Source: a virus | Taxonomy: Duplodnaviria; Heunggongvirae; Uroviricota; Caudoviricetes | Direction: 5' to 3' (one strand) | IMG/VR virus record: IMGVR_UViG_2617270990_000009 | Length of the DNA: 5,574 nucleotides | Part shown: one piece after another, positions 1 through 5,574 of the stretch | How the letters are laid out: every line of letters begins with the position of its first letter | How positions within the stretch are numbered: position 1 is the stretch's first letter | The notes under the pieces: generated by a model | What the model was told of the DNA's origin: nothing | What the model saw: only the letters and a program-made list of their open reading frames with translations | Database searches by the model: none | Program-made: the position numbers and the translations under genes

Positions 1-325
1 ATTTTTTCCAGAGGCGGTCGAACTCCGCCTTCGCAAAATAAGCGGAAGCCTGGCGAAGGATATCGTTACTGCGGCGCAGTTCACGATTTTCACGTTCCAG
101 CTCTTTCAGACGCTGACGTTCAGCGCTGGTGAGCCCACCATCACCGCCCCCGGTATCCCGCTCATGCTGGCGAACCCAGACACGCAGAGTCTCCGGCGTA
201 CAGCCAATCTTTGGGGCAATGGAACAAATTGCCGCCCACTGTGAGTCATATTCATCCTGACTTTCCAGAACCATACGAATCGCCCGCTGACGGACTTCGG
301 GGGAAAAACGAGTATTTTTAGTCAT
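1..325 (-). CDS. IS3-family transposase OrfA (HTH DNA-binding subunit), cut at window edge just at its stop codon
   Basis: ATG at 323..325 on the minus strand; translation identical to the 108-aa OrfA of the second copy ([22 protein letters not shown]...). RBS AGGTAAACAGG upstream. Confidence 0.85.
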
Positions 326-379
326 CCTGTTTACCTCTTTCTCAGGGAGTTTAGTCTCCAGGATTTCCGGGGCGGTTCA
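1..379 (-). mobile_element. IS3-family insertion sequence (IS629-like), partial copy A; left-end terminus at 379, remainder lies beyond window start
   Basis: Reverse complement of 1..379 is base-for-base identical to 4284..4662 of the second copy as far as I can read (position x pairs with 4663-x). Terminus reads TGAACCGCCCCGG, which I recall as the IS629/IS1203 end. Confidence 0.9.
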
Positions 380-791
380 CTCCGGCATCTTTTTTATTGG
401 TTTGGGGGAGTGGATTAATTACCCTCTCAAGGTGAGATTTATTGGTCCTGGAGTTTGGACTCGTGGATATAATCGTTCTTCGTGCGCACTCGGTATCATC
501 TTCGACATACTTGGTTGTTTCCTGATTGTTACAGGAGTCGTCAAGTTCTTCTGATGTAAAACCGCAAATGGGGCACGTAACGGGAATTTTGAAAAGCGTT
601 TCTCCGGGTTCCAGAACAAAATTTTCTGCGGTCTGATTTTGCTTCTCATATTTGTGCTCCGCGTCATTGTGAGAGCACATTCTTATTCTGAGTGCCTGTT
701 TAAACTCACTGAAGCTGAGAGCTTCTTCGCCTTCGGCAAGGCCTTCGAAGTATTCTTCGTAAGCCTTTTCCATGATTGTGTCGAAATCCAT
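351..791 (-). CDS. ydfB/ydfC-like protein of the dicB-operon region (Cys-rich, CPICG...C...C); 3' end chimeric, last ~9 codons and stop lie inside the IS terminus, so native C-terminus is probably lost
   Basis: Minus-strand ORF; likely start is [17 protein letters not shown] at 789..791, one base after the ydfA-like stop, with AGGTGA RBS. The six-frame ORF extends to 833 but that overlaps ydfA. The reading frame crosses the IS boundary at 379/380. From memory it resembles K-12 YdfB plus YdfC, which I cannot verify. Confidence 0.5.
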
Positions 792-792
792 A

Positions 793-948
793 TCACTCAC
801 CTGAGTTTCTTTCCAGCCAGCGACGGGCACCATTTTCGGTTTTAAACGTTTTGCTTTTGGTATACGTCATCGCGGTGAACGTGCCGTCCTGATTGGGGAA
901 CACGCCACATACCAGAGATTCGCTGTTGCCAAGATCGATAGTATCCAT
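793..948 (-). CDS. ydfA: YdfA-like small protein (51 aa, DUF1391-type), first gene of the dicB-type operon
   Basis: ATG at 946..948 (minus) preceded by GAGGT RBS; translation MDTIDLGNSESLVCGVFPNQDGTFTAMTYTKSKTFKTENGARRWLERNSGE. Sits downstream of dicA on the same strand, as in K-12 Qin. Confidence 0.6.
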   Translation of the reverse strand: MDTIDLGNSESLVCGVFPNQDGTFTAMTYTKSKTFKTENGARRWLERNSGE

Positions 949-1025
949 GCTGACCTCATTTCCCCTTAACGCCGGGGTGGCGGAACTGTTTGCTGAGAAC
1001 ACCGTGCGGTGTGTTGATGTAAACA

Positions 1026-1054
1026 AGATTAGTCATAACTAACATATTGGTCAA
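1026..1054 (-). promoter_or_regulatory. Putative sigma70 promoter for the ydfA operon (dicBp-like): -35 TTGACC, 17-bp spacer, -10 TAATCT (minus-strand reading)
   Basis: Reverse complement of 1049..1054 is TTGACC and of 1026..1031 is TAATCT, with a 17-nt spacer; an operator-like site overlaps the spacer and -10. Confidence 0.35.
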
Positions 1055-1080
1055 GTGATTTTGTATGTTATGGCTAACAT
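1029..1080. promoter_or_regulatory. Two operator-like imperfect palindromes with CTAACA half-sites (TTAGTCATAACTAACA at 1029..1044; TGTTATGGCTAACA at 1066..1079), candidate DicA/DicC binding sites
   Basis: They share the TGTTAG/CTAACA half-site with the palindrome in the dicA-dicC intergenic region. Confidence 0.4.
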
Positions 1081-1114
1081 AATTGATATAATAAAAGATA
1101 ACTCATTGATGATG

Positions 1115-1522
1115 TTATCTTTTATTTGTCCGCTGACGGGCTTTTAGTAATTCTTCAAAGAGTTTATTGAAATTTTTTACTCGAGCTCGCATTTCGGCGA
1201 GCTGGGTATCCTGTTCTGATTCTGGCAGTGCATTAAACAGCTCAAGGAGCTCTAGTTCTTTGGGGGCTAAGGCAACCGGCTTCTCAACAGGTGGTGTTGG
1301 TTGCTTGTCTTCATCGCCAAATAGAATCCATGTTGGTGAGCATTGCAATACTTTGCTGAGGGCAAAAAGGTTCTTCCCTGTAGGTTCACTATCATCCCGT
1401 TCCCATTGTGATACAGACACATGGGAGATTTTCAGGGCTTTAGCAAGAGACCTTTGGGTGTGTTTGAGGTTTTTCCGACGATACCTAATGCGTTCGCCGA
1501 TGGTTAAATTTTTTGTATCCAT
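1115..1522 (-). CDS. dicA: DicA, P22 C2-like HTH_XRE repressor of the cell-division-inhibition operon (prophage immunity repressor)
   Basis: 135-aa ORF MDTKNLTIGERIRYRRKNLKHTQRSLAKALKISHVSVSQWERDDSEPTGKNLFALSKVLQCSPTWILFGDE..., recognised as near-identical to E. coli K-12 DicA from memory. Divergent from a Cro-like gene. Confidence 0.9.
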   Translation of the reverse strand: MDTKNLTIGERIRYRRKNLKHTQRSLAKALKISHVSVSQWERDDSEPTGKNLFALSKVLQCSPTWILFGDEDKQPTPPVEKPVALAPKELELLELFNALPESEQDTQLAEMRARVKNFNKLFEELLKARQRTNKR

Positions 1523-1524
1523 AG

Positions 1525-1538
1525 TTAGCTAATGCTAA
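1525..1538. promoter_or_regulatory. Short inverted repeat TTAGC-TAAT-GCTAA next to the dicA start; possible operator half-site pair
   Basis: Seen directly in sequence; lies 3 bp upstream of the dicA ATG on the minus strand. Confidence 0.25.
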
Positions 1539-1544
1539 ATCGTA

Positions 1545-1573
1545 TTGACTATGTTTTTGTTAACATCTATTTT
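1545..1573 (+). promoter_or_regulatory. Putative dicC promoter: -35 TTGACT (1545..1550), 17-bp spacer, -10 TATTTT (1568..1573)
   Basis: Consensus-like hexamers at the correct spacing, about 30 nt upstream of the dicC ATG. Confidence 0.4.
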
Positions 1574-1590
1574 GTTAGCCATGACTAACA
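1573..1590. promoter_or_regulatory. 18-bp near-perfect palindrome TGTTAGCCATGACTAACA, candidate DicA/DicC operator overlapping the -10 and start region of the dicC promoter
   Basis: Reverse complement is TGTTAGTCATGGCTAACA, so 16 of 18 positions are symmetric. Related sites are at 1029..1044 and 1066..1079. Confidence 0.45.
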
Positions 1591-1605
1591 TCTAAGGTGT
1601 TTTAA

Positions 1606-1836
1606 ATGCTTAAAACTGACGCTCTTTTGTATTTCGGTTCAAAAACAAAACTTGCACAAGCAGCAGGTATTCGTTTGGCTTCGCTTTATAGCTGGAAAGG
1701 GGATTTAGTTCCCGAAGGTCGCGCGATGCGTCTACAGGAGGCATCTGGCGGGGAGCTTCAGTATGATCCCAAAGTTTATGACGAATATCGTAAGACGAAG
1801 CGGGCGGGGCGGTTGAACAATGAAAATCACTCCTGA
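1606..1836 (+). CDS. dicC: DicC, Cro-like small DNA-binding regulator
   Basis: 76-aa ORF MLKTDALLYFGSKTKLAQAAGIRLASLYSWKGDLVPEGRAMRLQEASGGELQYDPKVYDEYRKTKRAGRLNNENHS matching K-12 DicC from memory; AAGGTG RBS 6 nt upstream; divergent from dicA. Confidence 0.88.
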   Translation: MLKTDALLYFGSKTKLAQAAGIRLASLYSWKGDLVPEGRAMRLQEASGGELQYDPKVYDEYRKTKRAGRLNNENHS

Positions 1837-2341
1837 ACAGGCTCGTGAGGCTCTGGATGCCTGGATATGTCGACCAGGAATGACACAGGAGCAGGCGACG
1901 ATATTAATCACTGAAGCATTCTGGGCTTTGAAAGAGCGCCCGAACATCGATGTTCAGCGTGTCACATATGAAGGTGGCGCGGTTGATCAGCGAGCGCTTA
2001 GCGTTAATCGAGTGAAGATATTTGAACGCTGGAAGGCTATCGACACCAGGGATAAGCGTGAAAAGTTCACAGCGCTAGTGCCTGCAATTATGGAGGCTAT
2101 CCGGATTAGTGATTTCAGGTTGTATCGTGAAATTAGTGACGGAAAGAGCATTACGTACATGATCGCTGGGTTAAATAAAGAATATGGCGATGTGGTGGAG
2201 TCCGGACTGCTTTTTGCAGATCCTGCCGTTGTAGATCGTGAAACTGACGAACTTATAGAAAAAGCAATTGCTTTCAAGCTTGCGTATCGACAGCAATACC
2301 AACAAAAAGCTGGATGGAATTATGAGCCTTCTTTTTGCTGA
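1820..2341 (+). CDS. YdaT-like protein (proposed functional analogue of lambda CII in Rac/CP-933-type prophages)
   Basis: 173-aa ORF whose ATG overlaps the dicC stop by 17 nt. The internal motif KREKFTALVPAIMEAI resembles what I recall of Rac YdaT; position immediately after the cro-like gene fits. Family assignment is from memory. Confidence 0.55.
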   Translation: MKITPEQAREALDAWICRPGMTQEQATILITEAFWALKERPNIDVQRVTYEGGAVDQRALSVNRVKIFERWKAIDTRDKREKFTALVPAIMEAIRISDFRLYREISDGKSITYMIAGLNKEYGDVVESGLLFADPAVVDRETDELIEKAIAFKLAYRQQYQQKAGWNYEPSFC

Positions 2342-3287
2342 ACGCCCACTGGTTATAAACACACAGCTTGCGATGAAGATTGGCTTAAACGAAGCCATTG
2401 TGTTGCAGCAACTGCATTACTGGTTGAGAGATACCAATTCCGGCATGGAATGTGATGGTGTTCGCTGGATTTACAACACAACGGAACAATGGCTGGCGCA
2501 GTTCCCGTTCTGGTCAGAGTCAACGTTAAAGCGCGCGTTTGCAAGTCTGAAAACGCTGGGGCTTTTGCGTTGCGAAAAGCTCAATAAATCAAAGCGCGAC
2601 ATGACCAATTTCTACACGATCAACTATGGGAGCGATCTTTTAGATGGTGGCAAATTGAGCGAATCCATCAGTTCAAAATGCGTCGCTCCATCAGGTCAAA
2701 ATGACATGATGGAAGAGGTCAAAATGAAACGCTCCATTGGTTCAAAACGACCCAATGTCATCGGGTCAAAATGGCCCGATGATCCTACAGAGAATACAAC
2801 AGAGATTACTACAGAGAATAAAAACACTTTTCGTCCGGAAGCTTTGCAACCGGACCAGCAGACGGCTGAACAGGATTTTTTAATCCGGCACCCTGACGCA
2901 GTTGTGTTTAGTGCGAAAAAACGGCAGTGGGGTAGCAGGGAGGATTTGGCGTGTGCGCAGTGGATCTGGGGGCGGATCGTGGGTCTCTACGAACAGGCCG
3001 CCAGTGATGATGGCGAGATCATGCGACCAAAAGAGCCTAACTGGACTGCCTGGGCCAATGACGTGCGCACAATGCGGATGCTGGATGGCAGAAGCCACAG
3101 ACAAATTTGCGAAATGTTTGGTCGGGTACAGCGAGATCCATTCTGGGTCAAAAACATCATGAGTCCGTCAAAGCTTCGCGAAAAATGGGATGAGCTGGTT
3201 ATTCGCCTGGGGCGTTCGCCAATAAAGCGTTGTGTGAATCATATTTCTGAACCGGATACCGAAATTCCGCCTGGTTTCAGGGGATAA
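2322..3287 (+). CDS. Phage replication initiator, lambda O-like (N-terminal winged-helix iteron-binding domain, linker containing the origin repeats, C-terminal DnaT-like domain)
   Basis: Long ORF; preferred start ATG 2322 (MSLLFAERPLVINTQLAMKIGLNEAIVLQQLHYWL...) overlapping the upstream gene by 20 nt. The six-frame ORF begins at 2268. Iteron array lies inside the coding sequence, as in lambda O. Confidence 0.7.
   Translation: MSLLFAERPLVINTQLAMKIGLNEAIVLQQLHYWLRDTNSGMECDGVRWIYNTTEQWLAQFPFWSESTLKRAFASLKTLGLLRCEKLNKSKRDMTNFYTINYGSDLLDGGKLSESISSKCVAPSGQNDMMEEVKMKRSIGSKRPNVIGSKWPDDPTENTTEITTENKNTFRPEALQPDQQTAEQDFLIRHPDAVVFSAKKRQWGSREDLACAQWIWGRIVGLYEQAASDDGEIMRPKEPNWTAWANDVRTMRMLDGRSHRQICEMFGRVQRDPFWVKNIMSPSKLREKWDELVIRLGRSPIKRCVNHISEPDTEIPPGFRG
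2664..2780. repeat. Origin-like iteron array: five direct repeats with core G(G/T)TCAAAA(T/C)G at ~23-bp spacing
   Basis: TCAAAA cores at 2673, 2696, 2719, 2742 and 2767; units 1 and 2 also share the TCCATCAG prefix. Located in the linker-coding part of the O-like gene. Confidence 0.6.
2787..2822. repeat. Three in-frame 12-bp tandem repeats ACAGAGA(A/T)TA.. (AT-rich), encoding TENT-TEIT-TENK; candidate DNA-unwinding element next to the iterons
   Basis: ACAGAGAATACA / ACAGAGATTACT / ACAGAGAATAAA read directly from the sequence, immediately 3' of the iteron array. Confidence 0.7.
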
Positions 3288-3327
3288 GTGTTGATTTCAG
3301 GTCATGAGGTAATTTTAAGGGGGACTT

Positions 3328-3756
3328 GTGGCAAAAGTTTTTACACAAGAAGAGCGGGAAAAAATTAAAGGGCAGGTGGTGGAACTCGTGCGCCAGAGCG
3401 GTCGTGAGACGTTACGGCAACTGGAAGCCAAGACAGGTGCGACAAGATATCTGATGAGCGCTCTTGCCAGAGAGCTGGTTGCCAGTGGCGATGTATACAA
3501 CTCTGGTTACGGGTTATTCCCGTCTGAACAGGCCCGTAAGGACTGGCAAAACGCCCGCAAAAAACTCTCGAGGGCAAAGGTGAAGAAACCCGCTGCGGTT
3601 GATCCAGACCTTATCTGGTCATTAGCTGACGGAGAAATACGTCGTTACGACAGACATCATAATATAATTTGTAGTGAGTGCCGTAAAAGCGAAGTTATGC
3701 AGCGTATATTGTCTTTTTATCAGGGAAATGTTCGATATTTATTGAAGTATCAATAA
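3328..3756 (+). CDS. Hypothetical 142-aa protein (possible winged-helix N-terminus; HH..C..C cluster near C-terminus); function unknown
   Basis: GTG start at 3328 preceded by a strong SD (TAAGGGGGA); ORF uninterrupted. I do not recognise a family. Confidence 0.55.
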   Translation: MAKVFTQEEREKIKGQVVELVRQSGRETLRQLEAKTGATRYLMSALARELVASGDVYNSGYGLFPSEQARKDWQNARKKLSRAKVKKPAAVDPDLIWSLADGEIRRYDRHHNIICSECRKSEVMQRILSFYQGNVRYLLKYQ

Positions 3757-3851
3757 CCTATTTAAACATTCCTTAAACTCAGAGTAGACTGGGTTAACAA
3801 TCTGTTTCAATTGCAAATTGACAATCTATAGCCAGCGCGACGGGAGTGTTC

Positions 3852-4283
3852 ATGTTTAGTCAGGTTGACATCGGTAGTTTCGGTAGTTTTACGGACCTCA
3901 GTTGGAAAAATAGCCTTAAGGATGCAGGTAACAATGTCCAGAATTTCAAGAGGCTTAACATCCTCTACGGACGGAACTACTCTGGTAAAACTACACTCTC
4001 ACGAATTTTCCGCGCTTTGGAAACGGGGCGCATTCCACATAACTACGTGGACCCAAATTTTACTATTCGTGGTGACAAAGGTGATGTGACACAGGTAGGT
4101 CTTGCTGGTCATGGCTACGATGTTCGCGTCTACAACCGGGATTTTGTGAGCGATAACCTAAACTTCTTGGTCAATCAGACCGACGGCGAGATCAAGACGT
4201 TTGCTATCGTTGGTGAAAAGAATAAAGAAATCGAAGATGCCATTACCGCAATTCAAACTAGGTTAGGCAGTGTTGAATCGAAG
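3852..4283 (+). pseudogene. N-terminal fragment (144 codons) of a P-loop ATPase (Walker A GRNYSGKTT; resembles AAA_13 / RloC-PrrC-like or related defence ATPases), truncated by the IS insertion
   Basis: ATG 3852 with GGGAG RBS 5 nt upstream (GTG 3846 also in frame). Motifs NILYGRNYSGKTTLSRIF and VRVYNRDFVSDNLNFL. Reading frame terminates on TGA at 4284..4286, which is the first three bases of the IS terminus. Proteins of this type are normally several hundred aa. Confidence 0.65.
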
Positions 4284-4337
4284 TGAACCGCCCCGGAAAT
4301 CCTGGAGACTAAACTCCCTGAGAAAGAGGTAAACAGG

Positions 4338-4664
4338 ATGACTAAAAATACTCGTTTTTCCCCCGAAGTCCGTCAGCGGGCGATTCGTATGGTTCTGGAA
4401 AGTCAGGATGAATATGACTCACAGTGGGCGGCAATTTGTTCCATTGCCCCAAAGATTGGCTGTACGCCGGAGACTCTGCGTGTCTGGGTTCGCCAGCATG
4501 AGCGGGATACCGGGGGCGGTGATGGTGGGCTCACCAGCGCTGAACGTCAGCGTCTGAAAGAGCTGGAACGTGAAAATCGTGAACTGCGCCGCAGTAACGA
4601 TATCCTTCGCCAGGCTTCCGCTTATTTTGCGAAGGCGGAGTTCGACCGCCTCTGGAAAAAATGA
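4338..4664 (+). CDS. IS3-family transposase OrfA (HTH subunit)
   Basis: 108-aa [33 protein letters not shown]... with leucine-zipper-like C-terminus; GAGG RBS upstream. Confidence 0.9.
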
Positions 4665-5551
4665 TGCCACTGCTGGATAAGCTGCGTGAGCAGTACGGGG
4701 TCGGACCGGTATGCAGCGAACTGCATATTGCCCCGTCAACGTATTACCATTGTCAGCAACAGCGACATCATCCGGATAAACGCAGTGCCCGTGCGCAGCA
4801 CGACGACTGGCTGAAGAGAGAGATACAGCGCGTATACGATGAAAATCATCAGGTGTACGGTGTGCGTAAAGTCTGGCGTCAGTTGTTACGGGAAGGAATC
4901 AGGGTGGCCAGATGTACAGTGGCACGTCTCATGGCGGTTATGGGACTTGCCGGTGTTCTCCGGGGTAAAAAGGTCCGTACGACCATCAGCCGGAAAGCCG
5001 TTGCCGCAGGCGACCGCGTAAACCGTCAGTTCGTGGCAGAACGACCTGACCAGCTGTGGGTGGCTGATTTTACTTACGTCAGCACATGGCAGGGCTTCGT
5101 CTATGTGGCGTTTATCATTGATGTGTTTGCCGGATACATCGTGGGGTGGCGGGTCTCATCGTCTATGGAAACGACATTCGTGCTGGATGCGCTGGAGCAG
5201 GCGTTGTGGGCCCGTCGTCCGTCTGGCACCATCCATCACAGCGATAAAGGCTCTCAGTATGTGTCACTGGCCTATACGGAGCGACTAAAAGAAGCCGGAT
5301 TACTGGCATCAACAGGGAGTACAGGCGACTCGTATGACAACGCGATGGCTGAGAGCATCAATGGTCTTTACAAAGCGGAGGTAATACACCGTAAGAGCTG
5401 GAAAAACCGTGCAGAAGTGGAACTGGCCACACTAACGTGGGTGGACTGGTATAACAATCGACGATTGCTGGGAAGGCTGGGCCATACTCCTCCGGCAGAA
5501 GCAGAAAAAGCTTATTATGCTTCCATCGGAAACGATGATCTGGCAGCCTGA
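4661..5551 (+). CDS. IS3-family transposase OrfB (DDE catalytic domain), expressed as an OrfAB fusion by -1 frameshifting
   Basis: 296-aa ORF in -1 frame relative to orfA, overlapping it by 4 nt (ATGA); DDE-type motifs ([24 protein letters not shown]). Confidence 0.9.
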
Positions 5552-5574
5552 GTTCACAGATAAAACACTCTCCA

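Follow-up and report, generated by a model that had tools for sequence, protein, structure and literature searches.

An insertion sequence within a cassette of two predicted overlapping antisense genes truncates a Qin-type dicB operon in a Qin-like prophage contig

In Escherichia coli K-12 the Qin-type dicB operon runs ydfA-ydfB-ydfC-dicF-dicB. Rac, P22 and lambda carry genes of another kind, the sieB-type exclusion genes, in reverse orientation within their early-left region. Antisense overlapping genes have been reported in E. coli O157:H7, for example ano (PMC5960689). The locus analysed here shares with the K-12 operon the dicA/dicC pair, the operator/promoter region, ydfA and the first 34 codons of ydfB. 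K-12 keeps the ydfB tail and ydfC (396 bp), whereas the lineage of the window has a 517-bp two-gene cassette in their place; K-12 also has dicF and dicB, whereas the operon in the window is severed by an insertion sequence (IS) and neither gene is in the window. The cassette is unmentioned in the searchable literature, where ydfA, ydfB and ydfC are handled as uncharacterised small proteins, and the 2023 paper on dicBF regulation holds neither Rho data nor ydfB or ydfC data. We consider it probable (roughly 0.6), from the sequence comparisons given below, that the window contains the IS-cut end of a Qin-type dicB operon carrying an alternative cassette with two overlapping genes, in which the antisense frame is kept as a translated bridge.

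The window, that is the whole stretch of DNA analysed, is a complete 5574-bp draft contig (JNSB01000129.1, GCA_000705005.1) with inverted copies of one IS at both edges. The reversed left end of the IS occupies positions 1-379, Qin-like prophage DNA 380-4283, and the second, inverted IS copy 4284-5574. Features were assigned as follows, with L001 denoting the uninterrupted E. coli relative NZ_CM128582.

1-379 (-), left end of an IS3-family element of the IS1203/IS629 type (IRL and start of orfA), running off the contig
1-44, truncated ALIL frameshift pseudoknot in the left IS copy
351-791 (-), chimeric ORF, 146 aa plus stop; the native form has 191 aa
380-690 (no strand assigned), mosaic cassette remnant, 311 bp kept of 517 bp (L001 7795-8311)
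381-554 (+), 3' remnant of the plus-strand membrane-protein gene, codons 50-106 plus stop; the intact gene has 106 aa (L001 7855-8175)
381-554 (-), overlap zone, in which residues 80-137 of the minus-strand ORF are codon-aligned antisense of the plus-strand gene
555-611 (-), CPxCG module, N-terminal in the minus-strand ORF, 19 residues, CPxCG knuckle at 558-587, ending directly before the overlap
690-791 (-), ydfB head, 34 codons, the only part in common with K-12 ydfB
793-948 (-), ydfA, first gene of the dicB operon (DUF1391)
1026-1054 (-), putative dicB-operon promoter hexamers TTGACC and TAATCT, 17 nt apart, facing ydfA and surrounded by repeats that resemble DicA operators
1115-1522 (-), dicA repressor gene (NF007257, E=2.6e-70)
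1606-1836 (+), dicC, Cro-like (NF007282, E=1.8e-47)
4284-5574 (+), second IS copy, inverted, with orfA at 4338-4664, pseudoknot at 4619-4735 and orfB at 4661-5551

Two inverted copies of the same IS bound the contig, and the draft assembly therefore breaks there, as is typical of repeat-caused breaks; since the contig terminates within the IS at both ends, no sequence past the IS is readable, including any dicF or dicB. The element has the terminal inverted repeat, orfA (HTH_Tnp_1), orfB (rve) and -1 frameshift pseudoknot of an IS3-family element of the IS1203/IS629 type. Over 1291 nt it does not differ from annotated IS1203-family copies (100% identity), shares orfA/orfB and the ALIL frameshift pseudoknot with them, and is in itself ordinary; here, two inverted copies enclose a 3.9-kb segment. 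The copies form a 384-nt inverted repeat, the arm at 1-379 pairing with 4279-4662. The IS boundary was placed at 379/380 in the original prediction, and this was confirmed: the terminal 40 nt of the left copy (TGAACCGCCCCGG...) are identical to the start of the inverted copy at 4284, and window 380-4283 is collinear with L001 at 1 mismatch in 3904 nt, which fixes the IS end exactly. The five bases outside the IRL, read towards the IS, are nearly alike at the two copies (CGGAG at 380-384, CGAAG at 4279-4283), a likeness due perhaps to target preference, perhaps to chance. After a simple insertion, the absent 5' portion of the plus-strand gene would end in ...TTTCTGGC followed by a 3-4 bp duplicate of CTC(C). 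The left IS junction had no exact match among complete E. coli genomes. The genome of ECCHD184 was considered as a carrier of the same junction, its right side looking similar, but was rejected because the insertions differ.

The prophage stretch carries ydfA, dicA, dicC, a YdaT/CII-like gene, an O-like replication gene with iterons, a DUF977/Ren-like gene and, truncated after 146 codons, a large ATPase gene. Five 23-bp direct repeats (CATCnGGTCAAAATG...) at 2666-2781 within the O-like replication gene are presumably the origin iterons. The ATPase gene (window 3846-4283 (+)) codes for a 798-aa AAA_13 ATPase and is interrupted after codon 146 by the second IS copy. The intact ATPase (L001 11473-13869) has a PrrC-like region and aligns over its entire length with PDC-S06, a candidate defence system in PADLOC (E=0); both IS copies thus struck accessory, possibly defence-type, prophage genes. 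In a prophage of the same type at the rspB site of ECCHD184 (NZ_CP033250.1, L109), the ATPase gene was hit by another IS3-family element and the ydfB cassette by one of the IS66 family, and the two loci seem to be repeated IS targets in this prophage type.

Operator-like inverted repeats of the DicA/DicC kind (TGTTAGCCATAACA-type) are located on either side of dicA, at 1062-1096 and 1556-1590. The hexamers at 1026-1054 are a sequence-based candidate promoter, and the dicB-operon promoter role for this site is taken from PMC10448788. By sequence and position, the operator-like repeats and the promoter-like site are the expected dicB-operon control region. A ydfA-like gene had been predicted at the start of the operon and was recovered at 793-948 (-): its product matches DUF1391 (PF07151) with 96.2 bits (gathering cutoff 27.3; E=9e-28) through residues 2-49 and the full 48-position profile, and is identical to K-12 YdfA at 49 of 51 residues. 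The dicA-ydfA-ydfB beginning of a Qin-type dicB operon was likewise borne out by DNA homology to K-12 of 96.8% over 867 bp, which ends at window 691/690 and picks up again only upstream of dicF.

Downstream of ydfA there is one long ORF of 146 codons plus stop (351-791 (-)), as had been noted. It is composed of the ydfB head, cassette residues 35-137 and nine IS-derived codons (VNRPGNPGD) followed by the stop: codons 1-137 are native, codon 138 straddles the IS junction, and codons 139-146 and the stop are IS sequence, in agreement with the earlier estimate of about nine IS-derived codons. The ydfB head starts 1 nt past the ydfA stop and has an AGGTGA Shine-Dalgarno; judged by this arrangement, its translation is coupled to that of ydfA. 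An ATG at 678-680 may serve as an internal start. The 34-residue acidic N-terminus matches phrog_2061 over residues 1-34 (E=2e-21). A full-length match to the 42-aa K-12 YdfB was not found, homology stopping after codon 34, and in uninterrupted relatives the frame runs 157 more codons past that point. Among PHROG families the chimeric ORF matched only phrog_2061 and phrog_35040, both of 'unknown function', the latter at profile positions 15-153 of 205, whereas the ORF of the relative matches it over its full length. The ORF had been taken for ydfB plus ydfC. This stands for codons 1-34, which are YdfB, and fails for the rest, which is unlike YdfC (BLASTP E=17) and gave no match to the YdfC family phrog_1744, matched by K-12 YdfC itself at 1.6e-39. 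Aligned with the ydfA-ydfB-ydfC-dicF-dicB region of K-12, ydfA and the ydfB head are collinear, and the ydfC part is replaced by other DNA.

The native ORF crosses position 380 and in relatives runs 161 nt (54 codons) past the insertion point. The reported absence of dicF and dicB from the window was confirmed, with no DicF match (RF00039 covariance model) at E<=1, controls from L001 and K-12 scoring 72-77 bits, and no dicB ORF. The proposal that the IS boundary coincides with the expected site of dicF and dicB did not hold, as in relatives dicF is 424 nt and dicB 650 nt past the insertion point. Uninterrupted relatives have dicF, dicB and ydfD downstream of the cassette ORF, and the lineage of L001 and L002, to which the window belongs, has no ydfC anywhere between the cassette and dicF. 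Through the IS the minus-strand ORF has lost 54 codons and gained nine, and the plus-strand gene has lost its putative promoter, its start and its first 49 codons. By this reading of the junction, both overlapping genes are put out of action by the IS, which also separates the DicA-controlled promoter from dicF, dicB and ydfD.

A search of 5426 complete E. coli genomes recovered the 517-bp cassette from 806 (~15%), nearly always at 99% identity or more. Strains E24377A and 600029 carry it intact, 600029 being 100% identical. Over it, PGAP mostly places a 34-codon 'ydfB pseudogene' alone and sometimes a 191-aa ORF; among the records inspected there was no PGAP annotation on the other strand of the cassette. 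RefSeq and phage annotation call the minus-strand ORF and omit the plus-strand one (WP_000344958.1, HannyBb CDS0038, mEp390 gp39); the loci are at 3456-3911 in mEp390 (L106, NC_019721) and 2983-3600 in HannyBb (L107). Gene gp33 of Bcep176 (L108) is annotated on the membrane-protein strand, so the mEp390 note 'similar to Bcep176 gp33' connects two gene annotations that lie on opposite strands of homologous DNA. In some Rac-like relatives (P0032, P0033 and P0035; L239 1716-2531), the minus-strand ORF has lost its stop and continues in frame into a ydfC homolog, giving 245-271 aa. This read-through is the nearest real counterpart of a ydfB/ydfC fusion, and the window has no such arrangement. L239 also carries a PaaA2/ParE toxin-antitoxin pair between the repressor and the cassette.

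The intact plus-strand gene, absent from the original prediction, codes for a 106-aa protein with three predicted helices of the inner-membrane type and the motifs DYWYKA and GLGEWxNHP. It has all the features of an unnamed DYWYK/GLGEW family (~100-111 aa, three hydrophobic helices, [ML]K[IV]DYWYKA and G[IL]GEW[IV]NHP); the fragment in the window, codons 50-106, retains GLGEWINYP and helix 3. Full-length homologs of 106-109 aa were found down to 40% identity, including in Yersinia, and profile search extended the family to 411 clusters at 50% identity, mostly of 100-115 aa, with members in Pseudomonas, Shewanella, Marinobacter, Herminiimonas, Desulfobacteraceae and others. In every pair compared the plus frame has a dN/dS of 0.09-0.20 (Nei-Gojobori), and nucleotide differences cluster at third codon positions (23/42, 34/53 and 36/58). 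By these findings the gene is real, under clear purifying selection and part of a large uncharacterised family. All lineages (L001 7805-7854; L004, L007, L009 and L010) have an extended -10-like site, TGgTATC[C/T]T, ~40 nt before the plus-strand ATG, and this site is deleted from the window. A simple scan for promoters and terminators performed no better on the sequences than on shuffles. A possible hairpin after this site, including the AAGGA Shine-Dalgarno of the gene, was set aside because its covariation support is weak, with a single compensatory pair and a positive covariation term. In Shigella flexneri (CP182557, L024 3001-3348) a copy of the gene is full of stops and frameshifts and is a pseudogene.

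The plus-strand gene is always reversed within the early operon, beside the immunity genes, in lambdoid prophages with quite different repressors, and in mEp390-like phages it is reversed between cro and cII; these statements on gene context rest on annotated or called genes, since the automated classification of flank orientation was noisy. This position resembles that of the sieB-type genes, which also code for a membrane protein beside the immunity region, lie against the early-left operon, are apparently self-promoted and likewise sit between the repressor side and kil/exo. We take it that in Rac the corresponding slot is held by sieB. SieB-type proteins have ~160-190 aa and no sequence relationship to the 106-aa protein, whose family also occurs outside phages; apart from noise, Pfam gave no match at E<=1, SieB included. 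Scans of both cassette proteins with Pfam, NCBIfam, PHROG and PADLOC returned no functional family (0 PADLOC families for five members of the plus-strand family and for the minus-strand ORF), and PDB sequence searches with both gave no match. A Foldseek search of the membrane-protein model against BFVD gave a best E=0.25, which was rejected. Position and orientation suggest that the protein may be of an exclusion or defence type expressed in the lysogen.

On the minus strand, a module of the CPxCG kind (...KPLYDKCPxCGCD) also precedes the overlap in 11 other phage lineages, and its conserved columns over the 12 lineages have 1/1/10 extra nucleotide states at codon positions 1/2/3 (P=5e-4). A second module type in mEp390-like phages (PGSV.ID.....V.L.GW) has 2/0/16 states (P=1.7e-6); combined P-values are approximate, since the lineages are not fully independent and deep pairs share ~52% of codons at identical residues. 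The concentration of variation at third positions indicates that both modules are translated. There is no stop codon between module and overlap, so that ribosomes translating the module must enter the overlap. At ~4331-4333 of L010, which is a close relative, a GGA to TGA change in the Gly codon of CPxCGF breaks the minus-strand ORF and leaves the plus-strand gene intact; by its sequence L010 is a natural knockout of the minus-strand ORF.

In its intact form the minus-strand ORF is antisense to the whole plus-strand gene and stops 18-39 nt beyond the start codon of the latter. The second codon positions of the two frames coincide, and in this codon-aligned register only the sense codons TTA, CTA and TCA yield antisense stops. 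Among the Leu and Ser codons of the plus-strand gene these three account for 0/81 in lambdoid lineages versus 91/273 in distant homologs (Fisher p=1e-12). General depletion of A at third positions was considered as the source of the missing antisense stops and rejected, four-fold A3 being 0.15-0.26 versus 0.17-0.28 in neighbouring genes. Both remaining antisense frames of the gene contain 1-16 stops. Of the ~22 phage-borne clusters (75% identity), 15 lack any stop in the codon-aligned antisense frame and 5 more have stops at plus codons 5-18 only; three clusters have internal antisense stops (L148, L153/155 and L156), and some of these look embedded. Chromosomal homologs are co-oriented and of similar GC, and 10 of their 11 clusters have 3-17 scattered antisense stops. 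L022, the sole open member of the chromosomal set, is reversed between opposite-strand genes of a mobile element.

Four other readings were weighed against this evidence. In the first, the ORF would represent an ancestral state of ydfB plus ydfC, intact or fused, and the IS would have taken the place of the dicF/dicB part of the operon. This agrees with the YdfB origin of the first 34 residues, the missing dicF and dicB, and some Rac-like relatives whose corresponding ORF runs on into a ydfC homolog, but it is very improbable: K-12 homology is over at codon 34 and nothing beyond resembles YdfC, the IS sits inside the ORF and 424 nt ahead of dicF, and the lineage of the window has no ydfC before dicF. 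More improbable still, to the point of being negligible, is a minus-strand ORF as the only real gene with the 106-aa plus-strand ORF an artefact. Existing RefSeq and phage annotations do call the minus-strand ORF alone; against this, the plus frame is under purifying selection (dN/dS 0.1-0.2), and distant bacteria at as little as 33% identity retain its length and motifs with a minus frame full of stops.

The remaining two concern the antisense tail. If only the plus-strand gene were real, the minus-strand ORF, wholly or beyond its short module, would be a shadow ORF that is long by chance or by gene-caller habit. The minus-frame tail does have a dN/dS of ~1.4 in close, unsaturated pairs, AlphaFold gave no confident fold for the ORF (pLDDT <50 for residues 53-205), PGAP mostly leaves it uncalled, and the codon-aligned antisense frame is the one likeliest to give long shadow ORFs. 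Chance openness is low, however: when 33 neighbouring phage genes were scanned in windows of 106 codons, this frame was open in 4.7% of the windows, or 0.2-6% under a codon-usage model, against 15-20 of the ~22 phage-borne clusters; openness fails in chromosomal homologs of similar GC, and the module directly upstream is coding with no stop before the overlap. We hold this explanation to be distinctly improbable. True dual coding, with the hydrophilic, basic antisense tail a functional and probably disordered part of the minus-strand protein, is unlikely, though better placed. It would account for a frame that is open nearly to the end of the plus-strand gene in most phage lineages, and disordered tails tolerate high substitution rates. 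When conservative changes in the tail were compared with random synonymous choices by a BLOSUM test, one pooled test was marginal (P=0.04) and the other two showed no constraint (P=0.65 and 0.62), and the plus-strand gene fully explains the conservation of the tail. Its length is not fixed either, the tail being 5-18 codons shorter in five clusters and running into ydfC in some relatives. The amino-acid sequence of the tail thus looks unconstrained by these tests.

The translated-bridge reading, which we prefer, would work as follows. In the intact prophage the membrane protein would be made from its own promoter in the lysogen, in the manner of a moron or superinfection-exclusion gene, and the repressed early operon would have to be transcribed through this reverse gene from the other side. 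Selection would remove stops from the antisense frame and thereby let ribosomes stay behind RNA polymerase throughout its passage of the reverse gene, and this would guard against Rho-dependent termination, head-on transcription interference or collision arrest, and antisense-RNA pairing. Being translated would then matter, rather than which peptide results. It is a tentative extension, at somewhat less than even odds, that temperate phages with the reverse-embedded gene in general keep such a bridge frame, with selection acting on the absence of stops and not on the peptide. Evidence against the bridge comes from the three phage clusters with internal stops and from the nonsense codon in the module of L010. 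In addition, the minus-strand ORF is followed by a ~490-nt untranslated stretch with dicF; untranslated RNA is thus tolerated in the operon, and a purely anti-Rho argument loses weight (PMC5069750).

The actual content of the locus is an IS-disrupted nested antisense gene pair, and the IS event itself is ordinary. As in ano-type pairs of E. coli O157:H7, a coding ORF is embedded antisense in another coding ORF. Unlike in those pairs, the embedded gene is the partner that is old and widely conserved, the overlap spans the whole embedded gene in codon alignment and recurs across many phage lineages with two host-ORF modules, and the evidence is comparative, not expression-based. The gene pair with its open-frame signature is new among otherwise known phenomena (morons, antisense overlapping genes), and the cassette is one of the better comparative cases of a nested antisense pair, a class usually argued from expression alone. 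For the window the result is mainly corrective: the ORF is chimeric, and the IS lies within the cassette rather than at dicF/dicB. For the species, about 15% of complete E. coli genomes carry by the dicA immunity region a conserved small membrane-protein gene that is mostly unannotated, annotated on the wrong strand or covered by a 'ydfB pseudogene'. The contrast between an open antisense frame in phage-embedded copies and a closed one in chromosomal copies gives a testable idea: in operons running on to dicF and dicB, two genes with effects on cell division and phage resistance, transcription through a reverse-oriented gene may depend on coupling to translation. If the bridge is true and general, it would provide a genomic signature of how operons tolerate reverse-embedded morons, and would define a group of long 'hypothetical proteins' in which the actual sequence does not matter.
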